From positions 1 to 32,955 of the forward strand of contig JAYEOU010000141.1 of the NCBI GenBank assembly GCA_034723335.1: a stretch of 32,955 bases of DNA. The letters run 5' to 3'. Position 1 is the first letter of the stretch. Each line of letters begins with the position of its first letter. A program made the translations under genes and the position numbers. Below are positions 107 to 26,406 of the stretch, in pieces. The notes below the pieces were generated by a model. That model was not told the origin of the DNA, did no database searches, and worked only from the letters and a program-made list of their open reading frames with translations. This DNA comes from Patescibacteria group bacterium. Its GTDB lineage: Bacteria > Patescibacteriota > Patescibacteriia > Patescibacteriales > VMTK01.

Positions 107-213
107 ACAACGCGAGGTATTCTTACAGTTTATTATACATCACGACCCTTGCAAAAGTCAAAAAATTAATATATAATACATTACATTAAATTTATATTAA
201 GACAACAGAAGAC

Positions 214-349
214 AGATACTTATAGATATTTATTGATATTTGCTCGCTTTGCTCGCGATATTAGTAGATATTAAATATCGCTCCGAGCAAAAGCGAGGAG
301 CAAATATCGCGACTGGAAGGAGCAAATATCTATAAGTATCAATAAATAT
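214..349. repeat. 10-nt-phased AT-initiated unit array with inverted symmetry, upstream of uvrA
   Basis: Units atacttatag / atatttattg / atattagtag / atctataagt / atcaataaat flank units containing gcgagcaaagcgag (ttgctcgctttgctcgcgat at about 240-259 is the reverse complement of the atcgcgagcaaagcgagc unit at 26541-26584). Same unit vocabulary as upstream of ftsH and gyrA. Confidence 0.6.
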
Positions 350-388
350 TTTGAATCTATCTTTTTTATTGTCGTCTGCTATCTATTT

Positions 389-6352: not shown

Positions 6353-6409
6353 ATCTTTTAGATGATAGACGGCAGACGATAGAATATGTCCACCGTATAA
6401 TTGTAATTT

Positions 6410-8153: not shown

Positions 8154-8723
8154 CTACCGCCTAATTTTAATCTCATAATTAATCTGTTCAATTTTTTTCA
8201 AGCTATTCCTTGCCTGGTCATATTTAGTGCGCAAATAACCTGTCATATCAAATTCCACTAATTCAGCCAAAATATCGCTAATGGCGCTTTTAATTTTTTT
8301 CACTTCATCCTGCTTGCCGGCCGCCGCCATATTAATCGCCCGCCTGGCTAATTCACCGGTTAAATCGCAAATCCCCCCCAAATAACTGTCCATATCTAAT
8401 TTAATCTTTTTAACCCTGTCAACTTTTTTTCCTGTCATTACCCGATAAAACATTTTCGCTTCAACATATTCTTCGGCCCCGGCTTTATACGCGCCTTCTT
8501 TATTTAAGCGATTATGTCCAAATTTTTTCTCCAGCGACTGCAGGGCTTTTTCCGCTTCATTAAGCAATATGCCTGCTTGTTTAATGTCATCCCTATGCAA
8601 AGCGAAAATTACCCGCTTAGAGCCGTGTAAAATTACATTAGACAAACTAATAATCTGCCTGCGTTCTGATACATTCTTCTCATAATCTTTCTTTAATTTT
8701 TGGATAAATTTTTTGTTAATCAT
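8154..8723 (-). CDS. Translin-family protein
   Basis: 189-aa helical protein with YLGGICDLTGELARRAIN, matching the translin/TRAX signature (G..DLTGEL.R) from memory. Confidence 0.65.
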   Translation of the reverse strand: MINKKFIQKLKKDYEKNVSERRQIISLSNVILHGSKRVIFALHRDDIKQAGILLNEAEKALQSLEKKFGHNRLNKEGAYKAGAEEYVEAKMFYRVMTGKKVDRVKKIKLDMDSYLGGICDLTGELARRAINMAAAGKQDEVKKIKSAISDILAELVEFDMTGYLRTKYDQARNSLKKIEQINYEIKIRR

Positions 8724-8726
8724 ATT

Positions 8727-9034
8727 TTTAGAATTACGAATTACGAATTAAGAATTACGAGTTTGTATTTAGGGGCTGGTGATCTTTGCCGTTTTTGCCC
8801 TAAATTCCCAAAATTCGGCAAATTTATAAAAATAATTTTTTCGCCTATATTAGCTCATATAAGCTTAAAAATTATTTTTAAAATTTGCTCAAATTTTGAA
8901 AATTTATGATCAAAAGAGCAAAAATCACCAGCCCCTATTTACAAATCAAGAGTTTAAAGATCTTAATTCTTAATTCGTAATTCGTAATTCGTAATTCGTA
9001 ATTCGTAATTCGTAATTCGTAATTCGTAATTCTA
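8727..9034. repeat. Intergenic inverted-repeat element whose arms are heptamer arrays (acgaatt / aattcgt)
   Basis: Left arm is agaattacgaattacgaattaagaattacg...aggggctggtgat (to 8783). Right arm is atcaccagcccct (8924-8936) followed by aattcgt x8 (8972-9027) plus aattcta. Confidence 0.8.
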
Positions 9035-9036
9035 AT

Positions 9037-10755
9037 CTATTCCGCTACTCTAAATACTTCTTCCGCGCTGGTGATGCCGTCAATAGCTTTAAGCAAACCG
9101 TCCTGCGCCATGGTAATCATGCCGTTTTTCATAGCTATATCGCGCATATCATATTCGCTTACTTTGCCGCTTAAGATTAATTGTTCAATATCGCTATTCA
9201 TGGCCATAATTTCATAAATGCCAATACGGCCCTTATAGCCGATTCTCTGGCAGGCTTCACAACCATGGCCTTGATAAAATTTAAGATTATCAATATCAAT
9301 TTTATTTTTTTCCTCCTCAGGCAATTTATCTAAAATTTCCCGCGCTTTTTTATAATCTTCATCGCTAAGTTTTATTTCCTCCTTGCATTCCTCGCAAATA
9401 CGCCTAACTAATCGCTGGCCGATCATAGCGTTAAACGCCGGGGCCAGCAAGAACGGCTTTGCTCCCATTGATAAAAATCGCGGCACAGTGCCTGCCGCAT
9501 CATTAGTATGAATAGTTGAAAGAACCAAATGGCCGGTTAAAGCGGCTTGTATAGAAATTTCCGCTGTTTCCAAGTCGCGAATCTCGCCAACCATAATTAT
9601 GTCCGGGTCCTGTCTCACAATTGAACGAAGCCCCTTGGCAAAAGTATAATTTTTGCTGATTTGGGATTGGTTAATTCCTTTCAACTGGTACTCAATCGGA
9701 TCCTCAACGGTTATAATTTTTGTTTCCTGCTTATTAAGCTTTTTTAGAATAGCGTAAAGCGTAGTTGTTTTGCCTGATCCGGTCGGACCCGTAGTTATAA
9801 TCATGCCATTTGGGCGTTCTACCTCGCATTTTAACTGTTTATAAGCCCGGCCACGAATGCCCAAATCTTCAAAGTCCAAGCCAATAGCGCTTGAACGCAA
9901 TAATCTCATCACTACGCTTTCTCCATGGGCTGTCGGCAAAAATGATGCCCTAATGTCAACCTTGTCATCTTTTAAGTATATTGATATGCGGCCGTCTTGA
10001 GGCTTGTCAGTAATATTAATTTTAACATCAGCCAACATTTTCATGCGCGCGATAAATTTTTTCCATACTTCCTTGTCTAAAATAGCCGCATCATGCAAAA
10101 CGCCATCTATCCTAAATCTTATCTTAATATCTTCTTCTTCTCCCTCAATATGAATATCTGAAGCATTCAACTTAATGCTTGCCGCCATAATCATTGTTAC
10201 CATATCAGTTATCTGCGCTTTCTTAATCTGCTCTTGCAAATCTTTAAAGCTGGAAAGCTTTGCGCTATATTTATTTAATTCTTGCTCATTTATTTTAACG
10301 CCTTTAATAATTTCCCGCGGGGCAGGTATGGTCTTATAAAGCTCTAAGGCAAACTCAAGGCTATGGCTGGAAATTAAATAAATCTCGCCGTGGCAGTAAT
10401 ATTTCTCTTTTAGCTGGATTAATAGGTCTTTAACTTTGTTATCATCAGGCTGAGTTGAAGCTAAACGCAAATTATTGCCATCGTAATAAAAACAAACAAC
10501 GGATAATTTTTTAGCGTCTTCTTCTTTAATAAGTGATAAAGCTTCTGGGCTGACAGGAAAACCAGCCAAATCAACATAAGAGACGCCTGATTGTCCCGCT
10601 TGTTGCTCAGTTAAACGCTCAATTTCTTTTTTCTTAATTTCTTCCTGTTTTTCAACAAATTTTGTTTGCGCGCTTTCATCGCTTTGAGATTGGCCTTGAG
10701 ATGGAATAATTAAATCCTCAATTGAAGTAAATGGCTTTTTATAGTCTTTGGGCAT
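9037..10755 (-). CDS. pilB: Type II secretion / type IV pilus assembly ATPase (GspE/PilB family)
   Basis: Walker A GPTGSGKTTT, VEDPIEY, RQDPDIIMVGEIRD, and the tetracysteine CEECK...CEAC. Length is typical of PilB. Confidence 0.92.
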   Translation of the reverse strand: MPKDYKKPFTSIEDLIIPSQGQSQSDESAQTKFVEKQEEIKKKEIERLTEQQAGQSGVSYVDLAGFPVSPEALSLIKEEDAKKLSVVCFYYDGNNLRLASTQPDDNKVKDLLIQLKEKYYCHGEIYLISSHSLEFALELYKTIPAPREIIKGVKINEQELNKYSAKLSSFKDLQEQIKKAQITDMVTMIMAASIKLNASDIHIEGEEEDIKIRFRIDGVLHDAAILDKEVWKKFIARMKMLADVKINITDKPQDGRISIYLKDDKVDIRASFLPTAHGESVVMRLLRSSAIGLDFEDLGIRGRAYKQLKCEVERPNGMIITTGPTGSGKTTTLYAILKKLNKQETKIITVEDPIEYQLKGINQSQISKNYTFAKGLRSIVRQDPDIIMVGEIRDLETAEISIQAALTGHLVLSTIHTNDAAGTVPRFLSMGAKPFLLAPAFNAMIGQRLVRRICEECKEEIKLSDEDYKKAREILDKLPEEEKNKIDIDNLKFYQGHGCEACQRIGYKGRIGIYEIMAMNSDIEQLILSGKVSEYDMRDIAMKNGMITMAQDGLLKAIDGITSAEEVFRVAE

Positions 10756-11431: not shown

Positions 11432-11712
11432 ACTATGGAGACGTCTCAGGGATTGAATTTTCAATTTCTAATCCGCCAGCTGACGGATAAATTTCTATTA
11501 AATTTGAATGCCAATAATTAATTATAAAAAATAAATAGCTGGTCAAGGGTGTCTCACCCTTGACATTACCGCCTGCGGCAAACGATTATGCTGTGGGTGA
11601 GACACCCACAGCCAGCTTAATTCTTAATTTTTAATCCGCCAGCCGGCGGAGCGGACAAAATTGAAAATTCTCTATAATTTATTTCAAAATTCAAAAATAT
11701 TCTTAATAGTTT

Positions 11713-12717
11713 TTACTTCTTACTTCTAAATTCTAACTTCTTAAACATCCTCGCAATCCTGCTTGTCCCGCCTTTATTGATCAGTTCAATGAACAATCCC
11801 GTCCAAGACGCGATTTGAAAAGTGGATAGAGCAGCTCCTGTCAGGACAGTAATGGCTAAAAAAATAATTAAAGCTAAAATGGCCACAACCCAAAAACCGG
11901 TTGCTGAAAATATATAATAAAAAATTAAACCCAGAAACAAAAACGGCACGGCTAAAATTAAAACAGTTAAAACTAAGGCAAGGCCAACCAATAAATTAAT
12001 AAAAAATAAGATAAAAGCCATTTCAACGCTAACCAGCCAATTGCCGGCAAATAGTCTCCAGCCGTCCCTGATAGCCGCGCAAAAACCACTGCCGCGAATA
12101 ACAACATAAGCGATGGCATACTTAATGATAAAAGATAAAGCAATGGCTAATGGTATAAAAATTATAAAAGCGATAACATAAAACAAGTCAATTGCGGCCA
12201 TGCTATTTTGGGCAAGCGATAAAACAAACGGCAAGCTAAGCAAAATAAACAATAAATAAATAAATAATTTAATAACTATATTTAAGCCAAACACCGGCCA
12301 AAAATTTTTTATGCCAACGGCAACGCCATTCTGGATCCCTAATTTTCCTGATTTTTTTTCAGTAATAATATTGGCTGAATTATTAACCAAAGCCGCCTGC
12401 GATACTATAACCAGCCAAACCAAAAATCCAAACAAAATAAAGATTACTAAACCGACAGCTAAAATCATTGCTAAAGACAAGGGATCTTCATGTATTATCT
12501 GCTTAATATTATTTAAAGTTTGGCTGCTAAAAACGCCTGTCTCAACAAAACGCTGCCAACCGGGAAAAAAATTGGCATTGCCGCTTAAGCCGCGCGCCAA
12601 TATTTCATATTCGCCGCCATTTCCAAACAAAGCGGCAAACAAGCCAAAAAACCATAAATATTTGTTTTGCCAAGTAATTTTTAAGCCCTGTTTTAAAATG
12701 TTGCTATATAATTGCAT
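11713..12717 (-). CDS. Polytopic membrane protein of unknown function
   Basis: 334 aa with 7-8 hydrophobic segments. AAGGAGG Shine-Dalgarno about 7 nt upstream of the ATG. The C-terminus and stop lie in a cttctNa heptamer array (11716-11743). Confidence 0.7.
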   Translation of the reverse strand: MQLYSNILKQGLKITWQNKYLWFFGLFAALFGNGGEYEILARGLSGNANFFPGWQRFVETGVFSSQTLNNIKQIIHEDPLSLAMILAVGLVIFILFGFLVWLVIVSQAALVNNSANIITEKKSGKLGIQNGVAVGIKNFWPVFGLNIVIKLFIYLLFILLSLPFVLSLAQNSMAAIDLFYVIAFIIFIPLAIALSFIIKYAIAYVVIRGSGFCAAIRDGWRLFAGNWLVSVEMAFILFFINLLVGLALVLTVLILAVPFLFLGLIFYYIFSATGFWVVAILALIIFLAITVLTGAALSTFQIASWTGLFIELINKGGTSRIARMFKKLEFRSKK

Positions 12718-12827
12718 ATAGTTTCCTCCTTAAAATCGCGAATAAAACGCGAATGGTCAAGAATTAAGAATTAAGTCCGTCAGCCCCGCTACTCGCGAGC
12801 GGCGGGGCCAGCTGGCGGATTTTATAA

Positions 12828-12876
12828 GTTCCATGTTCCACGTTATGCGTTATGCGTTATGCGTTATGCGTTATAC
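12828..12876. repeat. Heptamer tandem array: gttccat x2, then gttatgc x4 plus a variant
   Basis: Read directly. 12857-12876 overlaps the ftsH 3' end, so residues ...CITHNA and the TAA stop are array-encoded. Confidence 0.9.
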
Positions 12877-14695
12877 AACCCTTCTCCCCCACTATTTTCT
12901 CAAATTCCTCTCTCTCTATAGTCTCCTTCTTGAGCAACACTTCAACTATTTTTTCTAAATCTTTGCGTTTTGCTTTAATAATGCCCTTGGCTTGATGAGC
13001 CGCTTTATTTATAAAATCAGAAATTTCCTTATCAATTTGTTCAGCAATTCTTTCACTATAATCCCTTTGTTCATGAATTTCCCGGCCTAAAAAAATCATT
13101 TCATCTTTACTGCCAAAAGTTCGCGGACCCAAAGTTTCGCTCATGCCAAAATCAGTAATTAATCTGCGGGCTAGACTTGTGGCTTGGCGCAAATCAGAAG
13201 TGGCTCCGGTTGTAATCTCGCCAAAAACTTCCTGTTCTGCTACATACCCCGCTAACAAAACCGCAATTTCTTCAATAAATTCATCCTTAGTATGCATATG
13301 CTTATCTTTAGTCGGCATTTTTAAAGTATAGCCGCCGGCCTGGCCGCGCGCGATAATAGAAATTTTCTGCACAGGATCAGTGCACGGCAAATTATGGGCG
13401 ACCAAGGCATGCCCTGCTTCGTGATAAGCGGTAATCTTTTTTTCTTTTTCAGTTAAAACCCTGCTTTTGCGCTCAGGCCCTAACATTACTCTTTCAATTG
13501 ACTCTAACAATTTATCCATTTCAATTATTTTTTTATTGCGCCGGGCGGTTAACAGAGCTGCTTCATTAAGCAGGTTAGCCAAATCAGCTCCGCTAAAACC
13601 AGGAGTGCGCTCGGCAACGCGGCGCAAACTAACTTCTTTGGCTAACGGCTTTTTGCGCGCGTGGACTTTAAGAATCGCTTCCCGATCGGCAATATCCGGC
13701 GCGTCTAAAGTAACGCGGCGATCAAAACGGCCGGGCCTGAGCAATGCCGTATCTAAAACATCCGGACGATTCGTAGCCGCCATCACAATCACATTGGTAT
13801 TTGGCTCAAAGCCGTCCATCTCCACTAAAATCTGATTTAAAGTCTGTTCCCGCTCATCATGCGAACCGCCCAAGCCGGCGCCGCGCTTGCGCCCCACGGC
13901 GTCTAATTCGTCAATAAATATAATGCAAGGCGTATTTTTTTTAGCTTTTTTAAATAAATCACGGACCCTGCTCGCTCCAACCCCGACAAACATCTCTACA
14001 AATTCCGAGCCGGAAATGCTAAAAAAAGGCACATTGGCTTCACCTGCCGTGGCGCGGGCTAAAAGCGTTTTGCCGCAACCAGGGCCGCCTAAAAGCAAAA
14101 CGCCCTTGGGAATACGCGCTCCTAATTCAATAAATTTTTTAGGATGCTGTAAAAATTCAACCACTTCTTTCAACTCTTCCTTGGCTTCTTTATCTCCTGC
14201 CACATCGCGAAAAGTAACTTTATCCTTGCGATCCTTGCTGATTTCACGGGCTTGGGACTGGCCGAACATCATTGCCCTGGTGTTAGCTCCCTGAACCCCG
14301 CGCATCATTAAATAAATAAAAACGCCGATTATTAAAAAAGGCAGTAAAAACGGCAAAAGAGCGGTAAGCCAATAATCCATGCCTGATTCTTCTTTAACCT
14401 CAATTTTAATAGCGGCGATTTTAGCCGAATCAACGCCAAAATTATTTAATAATTCAGACAAAGATTCGCCTACTTCTTTCTTAATTGTTTCTTCTCTGCT
14501 GTCTTTTAAAGCCACTTTTAATTCATCTCCTTCTATAATAATGCTATACACTTCCTCATTGTTAATTTGATTAATCAATGTTTCAATGCCAACTCTGTCG
14601 CTTTCTTGTTTACCCGCGCCAAAAGCGCTGAATAAAGCGGCAATCATTAAAAAAACAATAAAAAATATTAAGAAATTTTTAACCAAATTTTTCAT
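12857..14695 (-). CDS. ftsH: ATP-dependent zinc metalloprotease FtsH
   Basis: Two N-terminal TM segments, AAA+ Walker A GPGCGKT, Walker [12 protein letters not shown] region, and the zinc motif HEAGHA. Confidence 0.97.
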
Positions 14696-14711: not shown

Positions 14712-15008
14712 ATATTTATAGATATTAGTGGATATTAGCTCCTCTCCCGCTAAAGCGGGATCGGAGCGATATTTAATAGACTTGTCGCGTAATTAGTTTT
14801 GTAACGTCCCGCCCCTCACGAGGAGCGGGATGAGTTATAATTTTTCAAACAATTTTTGAGGTTTAGCCTAAGCTAAGCTGAAAAAATTTTTGGAAAATTT
14901 GACCAAAATTTGAAAATTGCAATAAAAAATAATTACGCGACAAGTCTAATATCAATAAATATCGCGCGAAGCGCAAATATCAACAAGTATCAATAAATAT
15001 CTATTATC
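14712..15008. repeat. 10-nt-phased AT-unit array upstream of ftsH, interrupted by a MITE
   Basis: Units atatttatag, atattagtgg, atattagctcc..(hairpin tcccgctaaagcggga)..gagcg, atatttaa | MITE | atcaataaat, atcgcgcgaagcgcaaat, atcaacaagt, atcaataaat, atctattatc. Confidence 0.6.
14777..14948 (-). mobile_element. MITE family 1, copy 2 (opposite orientation to copy 1)
   Basis: Same TIRs and core. Its internal modules differ: it carries the tcccgcccctcacgaggagcggga palindrome, and aaaatttgaaaatt in place of tccgccagctggcgga. Confidence 0.85.
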
Positions 15009-15559: not shown

Positions 15560-15659
15560 AGGCTTTGGCCGACGGCTGTCAGCGAAAGGGGCAGCACAGG
15601 CGGACTTATCCTCAGTAACTTCCTTGTGCTTGCTTTCAACTTTATGAACTTTATCACTT

Positions 15660-16778
15660 TTAACTTTTACTTCCGCTTGCCGCTTGCCGCTTGCCGATCG
15701 CCAGTCCCAAGCGATGTTCCTCCGGCTCTACTGAAGCAATAATAAATTTTTGCTTATCGCCAACTTTAAAAATTTGGTTAATTTTTTGGTCAGGCGCTAA
15801 ATTAAGCTGGCTTATATGAGCCAAGCCGTGAATGTCTTTATCTAACTTAACAAATAATCCAAAAGGGTTGACTTTAAGAATGTCGCAGACAACGGCCTGC
15901 CCTTCTTTATATTTTTTCCCCGCATCTTGCCACGGATCTTTAATTAATTTTTTAGCTGACAAAAAAATCTTAGGGCCGTCAATTGAAATAATTTCCGCGC
16001 TTAAAGTGTCGCCGCGCTTAAATAAGCTGGCGGGATTATCTATTCTCTGCCATGCAAGTTCGGAAATATGAATTAAACCCTCCAAATTTTCGGCAAAATT
16101 AATAAAAACGCCAAAATTTGTTATAGCGGTAATCTTGCCTTTAACCACGCTGCCGACTTTATATTTATTAATTATGTCTTTTTTATTTTCTTGCCAAGCT
16201 TCTTTTTCGCTAACAACCAATCTTTCCTCTTTTTGGTCCAACGCTATAATTTTTACTTCAAACTCATTATTAACAAAAGATTTTAATTTAGTTAAAATTT
16301 TGCTTTTATCGCCGCCGCTAATCCGCGGATAATTATCCGGAGATAATTGGGAAACCGGCAAAAAACCGATAATCTGTCCGTAACTGACTAACAAGCCGCC
16401 TTTATTGGCATTACTGACTTTAACTTTAATGATTTTTTTATTTTCATAAGCGCTAATTAAATTATCCCATGCTTTTTGCTCGCCGGCATGCCTGAATGAC
16501 AGCTCCAGCTCCCCATTTTCATTTTCCTCTTCAAAAACAGTCGCTTCAATCTTGCCCCCGGGTTTTAAATTAGCATATTCTTCCGCTTCATAATAAAGCT
16601 CGCGGCCGCGCACAACGCCGGTAATTACGCCGTTAATATCTAATCTAACTTCAGATTTTGAAGCTGATAAAACAATTCCTGTAACAGTATCGCCGATTTG
16701 GGGAATTTTAATATCATCATGTTTTAATAATTCAGCAAAATCATTGCTTGACGATTGATTGTTTTTTTGTGTTGCCAT
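15660..16778 (-). CDS. rpsA: 30S ribosomal protein S1 (four S1 domains)
   Basis: Repeated S1/OB motifs (G..V.G.V......G....I.....G..H.S....). The C-terminal GKRQAASGSKS is partly encoded by cgcttgc x3 (15674-15694). Confidence 0.92.
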   Translation of the reverse strand: MATQKNNQSSSNDFAELLKHDDIKIPQIGDTVTGIVLSASKSEVRLDINGVITGVVRGRELYYEAEEYANLKPGGKIEATVFEEENENGELELSFRHAGEQKAWDNLISAYENKKIIKVKVSNANKGGLLVSYGQIIGFLPVSQLSPDNYPRISGGDKSKILTKLKSFVNNEFEVKIIALDQKEERLVVSEKEAWQENKKDIINKYKVGSVVKGKITAITNFGVFINFAENLEGLIHISELAWQRIDNPASLFKRGDTLSAEIISIDGPKIFLSAKKLIKDPWQDAGKKYKEGQAVVCDILKVNPFGLFVKLDKDIHGLAHISQLNLAPDQKINQIFKVGDKQKFIIASVEPEEHRLGLAIGKRQAASGSKS

Positions 16779-23133: not shown

Positions 23134-23457
23134 ATGAAAATTAAAATTAAAAATGACAGGTATTATAAAAAAAGAAATGGGGCGGCCAAGATAATTAATA
23201 TTCAGTGCGCTAAATGCGGAAATTTCCTTTTTTCATATCAAAAAGACGGGCATGGAGAATTGATGCGGTGTTATCTAAACAGAATAATTAAGCCGGAAAA
23301 ATATTCGCGGATAAAAAATGAAGCGAACAATATAAAAGATATGGATAATTTAAAATGTGTTTGCGGAGAAATAATCGGAGTTCCGATGCAACATAAAGAT
23401 AAACGCTTGGCATTTCGGATGAAAAAAGGAAAATTTAAACGAAAATATAAAAAATAA
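23134..23457 (+). CDS. Basic zinc-ribbon-like protein, last gene of the operon
   Basis: CAKCG ... CVCG gives four Cys in CxxC...CxC spacing. Lys/Arg-rich N- and C-termini (KKGKFKRKYKK). Confidence 0.6.
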   Translation: MKIKIKNDRYYKKRNGAAKIINIQCAKCGNFLFSYQKDGHGELMRCYLNRIIKPEKYSRIKNEANNIKDMDNLKCVCGEIIGVPMQHKDKRLAFRMKKGKFKRKYKK

Positions 23458-23481
23458 TTTTTTGTAAATAAAAAAGCATGT

Positions 23482-23500
23482 TAATTACGCGACAAGTCTA
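23482..23500. mobile_element. Solo terminal inverted repeat of MITE family 1
   Basis: taattacgcgacaagtcta is a perfect right TIR, with no partner or core nearby. Confidence 0.7.
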
Positions 23501-23502
23501 AT

Positions 23503-23543
23503 AAAATAATCCCCTTGTTTGCACTAAATAAGGGGATTATTTT
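23503..23543 (+). terminator. Hairpin terminator after the operon
   Basis: aaaataatcccctt / aaggggattatttt, a 14-bp stem with a T-rich tail. Confidence 0.7.
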
Positions 23544-23559
23544 AATAAACAAAAAGCCA

Positions 23560-23596
23560 ACAAAACCAAAAACCGCCCCGGCAACCAAGGCGGTTA
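23560..23596 (-). terminator. Hairpin terminator downstream of gyrA
   Basis: aaccgcc...ggcggtt stem. On the minus strand it is followed by ttttggttttg. Confidence 0.6.
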
Positions 23597-23625
23597 TTTG
23601 TTTTAAATTCTCACTTCTACTTTCC

Positions 23626-26406
23626 CTACGTCCAAGTAACACACGCCACCTTATCATCATCCTCCTTAAACCGCATTAATTTTACTCCCTGCGTATCCCG
23701 TCCTGTCTGGTTAACAGATTTAAACGGCAATCTGATTACCTGGCCCTTTTGTGAAATCACGATCAAGTCTTTATCTTTCATGGTTTCAGTATTAACCACA
23801 TAAGCATTTATCAGTTTACCTGTCTTGGCTGTTACTTTAGCTGTTTTTAGGCCTGAACCGCCCCTGCCCTGCACTTTGTATAATCCTAAGGCGGTGCGCT
23901 TGCCAAAGCCTTGTTCCATAATAGTTAAAACCTGATACTTTTTTACTCTGTCTTTATCTGTTTTTATAACCCCCATACCCACAATCGCGTCGTCTTTTTT
24001 AAGGCGGATCCCGCGAACCCCTGCCGCGCCACGGCCCATATCGCGAATATCGGCTTCTTTAAAGCGGATTGCCTGGCCATTGGCTGTAATTAACTGAATA
24101 TGGTTAGAACCCCGGGTTGGCTTGGCCCAAATTAGTTTATCGTCATCTTTTATTTTCACGGCAATTAGGCCGGAACGCCACACATTGCCAAAAGCTTCAA
24201 TTTTTACTTTCTTAACCAGCCCTTTTTCAGTGGCGAAGAATAAATATTTGCTTTTAGCAATCTTATCTAACGGCAAAATTGAAGTTACCTGCTCGCTTCC
24301 GGTAAGCTGAAGAAAATTAACAATTGCCTGGCCTTTGGCAGTTCTTGTTGTTTGGGGAACTTCATAAGCTTTTAGCTGAAAAACTCTGCCCCGGGTGGTA
24401 AAAAATAGAATGTCAGTATGGGCCATGGTAGTAAACATAAATTCAACCATATCTTCTTCTTTAGTGGACAAGCCTATTACGCCTTTGCCGCCCCGGCCCT
24501 GCACCTTAAAAGTGTCTGGCGGCAAGCGCTTAATATAGCCGTCGCGCGTCATCACTACTATTGTTTTCTCATTAGGCACTAAATCTTCAGCGCTAAAATC
24601 CTTAACTCCATGCGCCACGATTTGCGTTTTGCGCTCATCGCCATGCTTGTCTGCAAGCTCCTGCAATTCCTGTTTAATAATCCCTTTTATTTTAGCTTTA
24701 GACTCTAAAATACCTGTTAATTCTTTAATCAGCTCGCGCTTTTCTTTTAATTCATCTTTAATTTTTTTGCTTTCCAAATTAGCTAAAACCGCTAATTTCA
24801 TTTCCAAAATAGCAACGGACTGGCGCTCAGTAAGTTTGAATTTTTTTATTAAATTAATTTTCGCCTCTTCGCGGTCGCGGGAAGCTTTAATTATTTTTAT
24901 TACCGCGTCAATGTTATTAAGCGCTATTATCAGCCCTGCCAGGATATGCGCCCGATCTTTAGCTTTGTCTAAATCATATTGCGTGCGCCACTTAATAACT
25001 TCCTCGCGGTGCTTAATATATTCTTCAAGCGCCATTTTTAAAGTTAAAACTCTTGGCTGGATGCCGTCGACCAAAGCCAGCATATTAACATGAAAAGTTT
25101 CCTGCAATTGGGTATGCTTATATAAATAGTTCAGAACTTTTTTTGGATAAGCGTCTTTTTTTAAGTCTATCACTACGCGCACCCCGTCTTTGTCCGACTC
25201 GTCGCGCAAATCTTTAATGCCGTCTAATTTTTTATTTTTTACCAACTCGGCTATTTTTTCCACCAAAGCCGCTTTATTAATCTGATACGGCAATGCAGTC
25301 GCTATAATTTGAAATCCGCGATTTTTACTTTCAACAATTTCCGCTCTGCCCTGCATAACAATGCCTGCCTTGCCTGTTGCGTAAGTTTGCAAAATATCCT
25401 TATTGTTGTAAATTATGCCTCCGGTCGGAAAATCAGGCCCTTTGATAAATTGCATTAAATCTTCAACCACCGCGTCAGGATGATCAATTAAATGAATAAT
25501 GCCCTGGACCAGCTCTCTTAAATTATGAGGCGGAATATTAGTCGCCATGCCAACTGCTATTCCCATAGCGCCATTAAGCAATAAATTAGGCAGCTTGGCC
25601 GGCAAAACTTGCGGCTCTTTGTGCGAGCCGTCAAAATTTGGTATAAAATTAACAGTATTTTTTTCAATATCATAAAGCAACTGCTCGGAAATCGCTGACA
25701 TTTTAGCTTCAGTGTATCTCATGGCGGCCGCGCGATCACCGTCCATTGACCCAAAATTTCCCTGGCCCTTTACTAAAGTATAGCGCATGGCAAAATCCTG
25801 CGCCATTCTAACCATAGAGTCATAAATCGCTGTATCGCCGTGCGGATGATATTTTCCAATTACCTCGCCAACAACTGTGGCTGATTTTCTGAATTTTACC
25901 CCTGAACGCAAGCCAATGCTCCACATAGCGTATAAAATTCTCCTGTGCACCGGCTTTAAGCCGTCCCGCGCGTCAGGCAAGGCACGCGAAACAATCACGC
26001 TCATGGCATAATCTAAGTATGACTTGCGCATTTCTTTAATAATTGGCTGTGGCTCAACCAAGCCGTATTCGGTTTTTTGTTTGCCATTGATCGGCTGTTT
26101 GGCTCCGTTTTTTTCTTCTTGAACTGTTTGTTTATTTTTTGGTTTAGAGCTTACGGCTATATCATCTCGCGCTATAGCATCCTCTTTTTTTGTCCCGCCA
26201 TCTCGCGGAACTGCGGGGAATAAATCCTTTTTCGCTGATTTTTCTTTCTTAACCGGCTTAACAGCTTTTTTAATCACCTGCTTCTTGCCAATAATTTTTT
26301 TAACAGCAAGCCTTTCAACCGCTTTTTTAACCACGGCTTTCTTTACCGGCTTTTTGGCCGGTGTTTTTATTGGTTTTTTAGATTTGTTTATTTTTTTCTT
26401 TGCCAT
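23626..26406 (-). CDS. gyrA: DNA gyrase subunit A with an about 118-aa Lys-rich N-terminal extension
   Basis: [32 protein letters not shown], the active-site region AAMRYTE, a GyrA-box-like QGRGGKG and C-terminal beta-pinwheel repeats. The extension is [28 protein letters not shown].... Confidence 0.96.

Follow-up and report, generated by a model that had tools for sequence, protein, structure and literature searches.

The tandem heptanucleotide arrays scattered through this genome probably belong to a family of palindromic elements between genes, either as their repeat-built stems or as arms that have survived singly. In its complete form, such an element would run from an upstream stop codon through a 5' arm of three to ten heptamers, a loop and a reverse-complement 3' arm to an ATG a few nucleotides further on, and its loop would sometimes bear a gene of the PF05635 family (23S rRNA intervening-sequence protein, S23p). 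Stop codons that fall within the arrays look like a side effect of these selfish-looking hairpin elements and not like their purpose. The window analysed here is one whole contig of 32,955 nucleotides, taken from a genome of 979 kb (146 contigs, 35.5% GC, 91%-complete assembly). The closest GyrA proteins (72-77%) belong to Candidatus Falkowbacteria and other Patescibacteria MAGs.

Heptamer arrays in the window

The array that drew attention lies at the 3' end of the minus-strand ORF at 12857-14695, whose product is FtsH by NCBIfam TIGR01241. Three repeats occur at this gene end and in the gap to the neighbouring gene:

12828..12874, minus strand: compound heptamer array, on the gene strand (TAACGCA)x4.9 followed by (TGGAACA)x2 (TRF and sequence)
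12778..12820: GC-rich hairpin, CCCCGC...GCGGGG with CCAGCTGGCGG, separating the ftsH array from the gene that follows
12759..12775: (AAGAATT)x2.4, a short array whose unit family is the commonest (TRF and unit-family counts)

TRF called positions 12841-12874 as (CGTTATG)x4.9 with 100% identity, preceded from 12828 by (TGTTCCA)x2. The TAA of ftsH (12857-12859) is located within the third unit, and the array also spans the codons of the tail (...GCITHNA), confirming the earlier note that both the stop and the last residues ITHNA originate from a heptamer array. The FtsH proteins of four same-family genomes extend 4-6 residues past IVG (GKKKS, GKKPA, GRKVS and GAKKINN). The tail here is about 4-5 amino acids longer than in those four genomes, and the array therefore adds about 4-5 residues as well as the stop. 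Folding of the ftsH spacer is not above chance (z -1.4), and the spacer contains no inverted partner, so that the flagged array is solo and its assignment as a hairpin arm is unsupported. The neighbouring hairpin at 12778..12820 is a member of a different, REP-like repeat family; palindromes resembling it (CCGCCAGCTGGCGG) are found at 11636-11654 and, at other loci, form the tips of heptamer hairpins.

The other arrays and related repeats of the window are as follows:

200..388, plus strand: hairpin upstream of uvrA, ending at ATG 389
6353..6385, minus strand: (CGTCTGC CGTCTAT C)-type units directly upstream of ATG 6352 of a YfcE-family phosphodiesterase
8731..8760, minus strand: 3' arm of the pilB-spacer hairpin, gene strand (GTAATTC)x4.3
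8770..8935: inverted repeats (AGGGGCTGGTGAT ... ATCACCAGCCCCT) nested inside the loop of the pilB-spacer array hairpin
8964..9036, minus strand: 5' arm of this large hairpin, gene strand (GAATTAC/CGAATTA)x10.6, directly after the pilB TAG
11616..11635: (CTTAATT)x2.9 array adjoining the GC palindrome at 11636-11654 (TRF)
11713..11743, minus strand: (GAAGTAA/GAATTTA)-type array x4.4, coding for the last residues and the TAA of a 334-aa gene
15633..15696, minus strand: two arrays at the rpsA 3' end, (CCGCTTG)x3.4 at 15673-15696 and a degenerate (CTTTTAA)x4.9 at 15633-15669
27309..27351, plus strand: (GTTAYGC)x6.1 array in a divergent spacer, 48 nt 5' of ATG 27399
29575..29950, plus strand: three in-frame repeat blocks in tsaD, at 29575-29639, 29740-29783 and 29921-29950, the last being (TGTTCCA)x4.3
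31417..31433, minus strand: short (TGAGAAG)x2.4 array holding the tig TGA at 31428-31430 (TRF)
32718..32750, minus strand: (CTGTTAT CTGCTGT CTGTTAA) units immediately 5' of ATG 32717 of tig

Most of the gene-end arrays named in the earlier note could be recovered. The TAA of the 334-aa gene (11713-12717) lies inside its array, as called by TRF, and the pilB TAG (9037-9039) directly adjoins (TAATTCG)x10.6 at 8964-9036. The (CCGCTTG)x3.4 array is translated as the C-terminal tail of RpsA, the stop codon of which (15660-15662) lies within the degenerate second array, and the TGA of tig is within an array, though a short one. At gyrA, in contrast, the three proposed units (23608-23628) are only about 4/7 alike and gave no TRF call. 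The units claimed before ATGs 389, 6352 and 32717 amount to only two or three imperfect copies, yet they are members of a genome-wide CTGTCTG/CTGTTAT family. ATG 6352 is supported as the true start by the NCBIfam YfcE profile, which begins at residue 24 of the long ORF.

Two of these loci fold into hairpins beyond chance. In the pilB spacer, the two arrays constitute the outer stem of an RNA fold (8715-9045, minus strand) of -138.5 kcal/mol with z -18.9, and the 3' arm stops 7 nt before the ATG of a HAD-family gene (8154-8723). In the uvrA leader (196-394, fold z -6.8), short heptamer arms (AGACAAC AGAAGAC ... GTCGTCT GCTATCT) enclose decamer and 22-mer units. A perfect decamer array (TATATCAATG x12.6) and 22-nt GCGAGCAAAGCGAGC units are found upstream of gyrA, uvrA and ftsH, at 214-349, 14712-15008 and 26418-26616 of the window, and also at C35:6480-7220 on another contig. 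The array at 27309..27351 displays the start-side orientation of the TAACGCA family described below. An Rfam search of the window returned a single match, a tRNA.

Abundance, placement and pairing across the genome

Exact period-7 arrays of at least three copies occur 75 times in the genome and 0 times in five dinucleotide shuffles; exact arrays of at least three copies with periods 6, 8 and 10 number 6, 6 and 8, respectively. With TRF (at least three copies and at least 80% match), 243 period-7 arrays were obtained compared with 6-12 in the shuffles. The heptamer arrays are real and much too common for chance. The dominant unit families are AAGAATT (28), AAAATTC (23), AACGCAT (16), AAATTAG (13), AAAAATT (12) and AAGAAGT (10), and near-identical loops occur at separate loci, for example C89:3022 and C10:19082. 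We also observed a conserved stretch of about 36 nt, ATAATTTTGAATGAYTTAATTTTGAAACATTAAATC, after (GAATTTT)n arrays 3' of stops at four or more loci (C6:2893, C19:10616, C13:576 and C118:1462), which represents a dispersed unit.

Such an excess might be expected from plain microsatellites, produced by a slippage bias to 7-nt units, purged from genes and left behind in spacers and tolerated tails, with neither an element nor a function. The slippage-bias hypothesis is credited to Mrazek et al. 2007 in PMC4692102, and in many bacteria no other long repeat unit is as over-represented as the heptamer (PMC4692102), in line with this explanation. It also accommodates the imperfect and compound arrays, the absence of a detectable inverted partner for about two-thirds of them, and the raised TRF counts for periods 6 and 8 (37 and 48, against 4-9 and 1-6 in the shuffles). 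Slippage alone does not explain why few units recur at many loci with shared loops, nor the inverted pairing, the strand rule, the depletion in convergent spacers and the association with PF05635 presented below. We consider plain microsatellites an unlikely explanation.

Arrays inside genes bear on the same question. Seventeen exact arrays of at least three copies are located inside confident genes, in frame and away from the 5' ends; an (AAAATTC)x4.7 array, for instance, codes for KFKIQNSKFKI in 1041-aa proteins. Four copies (1+3, +21 nt) are favoured within genes (9/17 vs 11/47 intergenic), as a frame filter acting on microsatellites would predict. In orthologue alignments, the in-gene arrays fall in variable loops where relatives have their own repeats, and one of them is nearly length-neutral against genome G007. 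The first tsaD block corresponds to about 17 extra residues in a loop when aligned with T. maritima TsaD, a distant reference. The stop-free orientation of arrays inside genes, noted earlier for tsaD, is automatic there and does not support stop supply as the explanation. In other genomes of the same family (G001:C50, G001:C44 and G003:C90), we noticed that the same housekeeping proteins have in-frame repeat insertions of their own at the loops that bear KFKIQNS-type arrays in this genome; an example is the KHENTKT-type runs of G001, with a 7-aa period equal to 21 nt or three heptamers.

We compared 239 merged arrays with random placement, relative to genes that we called ourselves from ORFs and codon scores (850 genes, 79% coding), with the first start codon in the ORF taken as the start. 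The arrays are intergenic in 135 cases (expected 40), lie over a gene 3' end in 33 (expected 6.5, sd 2.5) or over a 5' end in 13 (expected 5.2), and are inside a CDS in 58 (expected 187), leaving genes about 8-fold poor in arrays relative to non-genic DNA. The claim of non-random placement at gene ends thus held, as did the claim that some arrays supply the stop codon in use, which concerns about 33 genes among roughly 800 with a complete 3' end. Over the 40 nt that follow a stop, arrays cover 60-74 per mille of the sequence, and over the 40 nt that precede an ORF start they cover 38-75 per mille; the values are about 20-30 per mille farther out and 3 per mille in genes. The start-side peak is partly an artefact, since starts were defined as the first start codon after an in-frame stop, yet recognisable proteins, L20 and S13 among them, begin at many of these ATGs. 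The clustering at gene ends is not merely due to short spacers: among 137 arrays in tandem context, 43 hug the stop with the next start more than 30 nt off, and 36 hug the start with the stop more than 30 nt off. Tandem spacers hold arrays in 94/429 cases and divergent spacers in 11/46, whereas convergent spacers do so in only 3/46 (Fisher p 0.012).

A role as intrinsic terminators was rejected because arrays are rare in convergent spacers, where classical GC hairpins with flanking A/T runs are found instead. These hairpins have the shape of bidirectional intrinsic terminators and are found, for example, at C102:1952-1986, C20:1973-2045 and 23457-23625 of the window; a GAAGGCGAGG palindrome is reused in several convergent-spacer hairpins.

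The accumulation of arrays where a downstream start exists, and their rarity where there is none, could be taken to suggest that they serve as cis-regulatory sites, in RNA or DNA, through which a repeat-binding factor would influence translation initiation of the downstream gene. A repeat-binding regulatory role has been proposed for the TAACTGA repeats of Beggiatoaceae, which have the same placement together with scarce ribosome-binding sites (MacGregor 2015, PMC4679880). Here, no more than 10 nt separate the array from the next start in 45 of the 137 tandem-context cases, with no Shine-Dalgarno motif between array and ATG. However, such motifs precede only 9-17% of called starts genome-wide, the start calls being crude, and the start definition itself pulls starts towards stop-rich arrays. 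Moreover, the units vary by locus and by genome, so that there is no single binding motif, and the downstream genes follow no visible pattern. A regulatory function of this kind is quite unlikely in our view. The organism may rely little on Shine-Dalgarno pairing.

The arrays follow a strand rule. Within 1-30 nt past a stop, stop triplets are found on the sense strand only in 16 arrays and on the antisense strand only in 2, while the corresponding numbers for arrays more than 30 nt past a stop are 11 and 20. The sense-strand sequence of arrays beside stops is (TAAGAAT/TAAGAAG/TACGAAT)n, (TAACGCA/TAACACG/TAACATG)n or (GAATTTT)n, and start-side arrays are their complements, (CTTAATT/CGTAATT)n, (CGTTAYG)n and (TTCAAAA)n. 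In phase-variation (contingency) repeats, changes of copy number turn a gene on or off through frame or promoter spacing and are polymorphic within populations; here, the in-gene arrays are in frame in variable loops away from 5' ends, and at 3' ends the protein tail is unchanged whatever the copy number. Genome-wide, we therefore found neither random placement nor a lack of orientation bias.

Much of this orientation is a property of a palindrome, and a single hairpin often has the stop-side array as one arm and the start-side array as the other. For 63-80 of the 239 arrays, compared with 1-18 in controls, the reverse complement is present within 150 nt, and 47 arm pairs within 450 nt have a median loop of 52 nt. 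Many spacers consist of a stop, (AAGAATT)n, a loop of 10-50 nt, (AATTCTT)n and an ATG. Among the 47 pairs, stop-bearing frames are more numerous in the 5' arm of 28, fewer in 11 and equal in 8. Because an arm-loop-inverted-arm arrangement presents the same first arm on both strands, this stop-side polarity reflects the type of palindrome and not the direction of insertion. Whole-spacer folding hardly separates spacers with TRF arrays (median z -3.4) from those without (median z -2.8); the latter fold almost as strongly owing to other palindromes, which are GC-rich or have arms of period 8-19. RNase III is encoded in the genome.

PF05635 genes between inverted arrays

Of the three PF05635 genes in the genome, two contain an internal stop; each of the three lies between inverted arrays:

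C25:9793-10107: PF05635 gene with (GAATTAA)n over the upstream stop and (TTAATTC)n ending 4 nt before the next ATG
C50: PF05635 gene between (AAAATGA)n and (TCATTTT)n
C35: PF05635 gene between decamer/22-mer units shared with 214-349 and 26418-26616 of the window

All three loci are situated between protein-coding genes and not in 23S rRNA helix 25 or 45, and the unit types that bracket them occur also as gene-less arrays. Since the decamer/22-mer units form inverted arms around the gene on C35, the decamer elements belong to the same class as the heptamer hairpins. The best PDB match of the intact copy is 2RLD.

The same layout was observed beyond this genome. PF05635 genes are bracketed by inverted arms at about 38 of 43 loci in 41 genomes, including 11/11 loci in genomes of the same order and most of 29 loci phylum-wide. 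The best period is 7 at about 31 of the 43 loci, with a unit that is specific to each genome, and stop-bearing frames are more numerous in the 5' arm at 19 loci, fewer at 6 and equal at 18. The family is present in 16 of 21 same-order genomes, this one counted, and in 85 of 151 sampled genomes of the phylum.

PF05635 and heptamer arrays also co-vary. Based on samples of 13-40 kb from each of 49 genomes, PF05635 copy number correlates with heptamer arrays per 10 kb with a Spearman coefficient of 0.79 (p 2e-11, uncorrected for phylogeny; related genomes among the 49 are not independent), and the mean density is 0.15 arrays per 10 kb without PF05635 and 1.8 with it. GC content is unrelated to array density (rho -0.16) and hence no confounder. 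The relation holds within families f23, f39 and f42. In f23, G052, which has no PF05635, carries 0.25 arrays per 10 kb, compared with 1.5 and 11 in G023 and G079, which have it; in f39, the values are 0 for G068 without PF05635 and 1.75 for both G040 and G159 with it. Exceptions are G118, with three PF05635 genes and 0 arrays in 40 kb, and G033, with no PF05635 and five arrays. The first 40 kb of one G079 contig (G079:C1:1-40000) contain 44 period-7 arrays, about five times the density of the present genome, and G079 has seven PF05635 genes. A general tolerance of selfish repeats could also be the source of the correlation.

Together with the inverted pairing, the bracketing of PF05635 genes points to a palindromic element as the origin of the arrays. 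Gene-less copies would occupy co-directional spacers and some divergent ones, and slippage would then shift both copy number and unit sequence. A copy over a gene end could persist only if the reading frame closes at once, a filter that would enrich 5' arms with TAA, TAG or TGA in all frames, and some arrays would thus give the stop in use; in-gene copies would persist only in frame and within permissive loops. By analogy with S23p-bearing 23S rRNA intervening sequences, RNase III probably cleaves the stems once they are transcribed. We found no target-site duplication, transposase or excision footprint for the heptamer elements, and mobility is therefore inferred. As a counterweight to the element reading, three PF05635 genes stand against 239 arrays, and no copy with a PF05635 gene is present in this 91%-complete assembly for four of the abundant unit families.

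The earlier note stressed that arrays at 3' ends present stops in all three frames, which can be read as selection for barriers that would terminate translation whatever its frame. Its orientation bias near stops holds, and the excess over 3' ends and the stop-richer 5' arms of independent genomes (19 loci vs 6) agree with it, as does the arithmetic by which all-frame stops hold the tail constant while copy number varies. Stop supply as the driver is nevertheless very unlikely, because only about 4% of genes have an array at their end, arrays are scarcest in convergent spacers, each of which has two stops, starts are hugged as closely as stops, both arms of the commonest family (AAGAATT/AATTCTT) contain stops, the GGGAATC repeat of Xanthomonas has the same layout with a unit that contains no stop triplet (PMC4692102), and survival of frame-closing insertions would explain the bias equally well. 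We favour reading the coupling to stop codons as the outcome of a survival filter acting on heptamer-armed palindromes that resemble intervening sequences, and of the structural polarity of these palindromes, and not as a device for supplying stops.

We also entertained a broader proposal, in which PF05635 is a trans-acting partner that recognises, propagates or maintains arms with 7-nt periodicity, and the heptamer repeats of Patescibacteria, Xanthomonas, cyanobacteria and Bacteroidetes would constitute, together with rRNA intervening sequences, one class of mobile elements with common machinery. This generalisation is speculative and, on balance, unlikely. PF05635 (S23p/Avd-like) proteins are nucleic-acid-binding pentamers of four-helix bundles, and we know of no role for the family outside diversity-generating retroelements. 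Resemblance of PF05635 to the accessory protein Avd of these retroelements has been reported (PMC10053308).

Relation to known repeat systems

Heptamer microsatellites have remained an unexplained oddity of several bacterial groups since 1990. In the Patescibacteria, the heptamer puzzle and the PF05635 puzzle are physically joined and co-vary across genomes, which provides a testable common frame. The elements fix some protein ends, insert in-frame loops into housekeeping enzymes and occupy spacers that would be expected to hold ribosome-binding sites; consequently, gene callers and operon models for candidate-phyla genomes should account for them. Our searches of the full-text literature gave no paper on heptamer repeats in Patescibacteria.

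Heptamers of the STRR type were reportedly described by Mazel et al. in 1990 in heterocystous cyanobacteria (Calothrix PCC 7601), and to our knowledge no relation of STRR to stop codons has been described. The arrays presented here are likewise dispersed intergenic tandem heptanucleotides of several sequence families, but their units are AAGAATT, AAAATTC, AACGCAT and others, and the host is a member of the Patescibacteria instead of a heterocystous cyanobacterium. The presence of STRR-like microsatellites in a non-cyanobacterium, pointed out in the earlier note, is borne out by 239 dispersed period-7 arrays with about 8-fold enrichment outside genes. As an analogue, STRR fits the dispersed heptamers; it is not unique, since heptamers of Xanthomonas have been published as a case outside the cyanobacteria (PMC4692102).

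Among published systems, the heptamers of Xanthomonas and Nostoc and the intervening sequence of Coxiella come closest to the present elements. GGGAATC occurs on the sense strand within 50 bp after stops and on the antisense strand within 50 bp before starts, and overlaps stop codons (Rehm et al. 2015, PMC4692102). Heptamers of Xanthomonas and Nostoc (GGGGAYT) number hundreds per genome, lie mostly between aligned ORFs and occur less often than expected inside genes; 70-75 inverted pairs are present per Xanthomonas genome, with lengths that differ between close species, while inverted pairing is rare in Nostoc (PMC4692102). The same placement, strand rule and inverted pairs between aligned ORFs were found here. 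As the GGGAATC layout arises with a unit that has no stop triplet, stop content is not required for such a layout. The Xanthomonas and Nostoc units are G-rich and quadruplex-forming and have no stop triplet, whereas those described here are AT-rich, fall into many families and usually contain TAA or TAG; no unit family has a G-run, and G4 formation is not possible. A PF05635 link for the Xanthomonas and Nostoc repeats is not reported in PMC4692102.

S23p intervening sequences share the central feature of the PF05635 loci. In Coxiella burnetii, the 23S intervening sequence carries an S23p ORF in its loop and a 28-bp stem that is cut by RNase III (Warrier et al. 2016, PMC4990558), and GACAGAT is repeated two to three times, depending on the strain, just before the S23p start (PMC4990558). 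In this genome, the PF05635 ORF is likewise enclosed by a stem of terminal inverted repeats in 3/3 cases, and both systems have a poor or absent Shine-Dalgarno motif and an S23p gene that is often decaying. Stem cleavage by RNase III is known for the intervening sequences, and a gene for this enzyme is present here. S23p intervening sequences are single-copy and located in 23S rRNA helix 25 or 45. By contrast, the elements of this genome lie between protein genes, are many and mostly gene-less, and have entire arms made of heptamer arrays.

Direct TAACTGA repeats occur in marine Beggiatoaceae, cyanobacteria and Bacteroidetes (MacGregor 2015, PMC4679880). They resemble the present arrays in their two to six tandem copies, in their position mostly a few nucleotides 5' of starts and in a unit with TAA and TGA. 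They differ in having one unit sequence, which is inverted in only 1/170 sets.

The elements are similar to REP/REPIN sequences in being abundant intergenic palindromes in co-transcribed spacers. REP stems are not built of tandem repeats. Membership of the heptamer arrays in a REP/RAYT system was rejected, as 0/6 Y1-transposase (PF01797, RAYT-like) genes have a heptamer array within 900 nt; these genes are flanked by GC-rich palindromes instead of heptamers. The PF01797 matches are:

C58:5743-6084: Y1-transposase match
C47: Y1-transposase match
C94:2275-2898: Y1-transposase match
C37: Y1-transposase match
C46:3003-3584: Y1-transposase match
C29:88-726: Y1-transposase match

Several of them are flanked by GC-rich palindromes of the GAAGGCGAGG...CCTCGCCTTC or GGCTATGG type, hinting that the genome's GC-rich hairpins belong to a REP/RAYT-like system of their own.

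Finally, contig C46 carries at 1361-2518 a 385-aa reverse-transcriptase ORF (PF00078, 85 bits) with small ORFs upstream and no PF05635 on the contig; it could represent a diversity-generating retroelement or a retroelement of another type.
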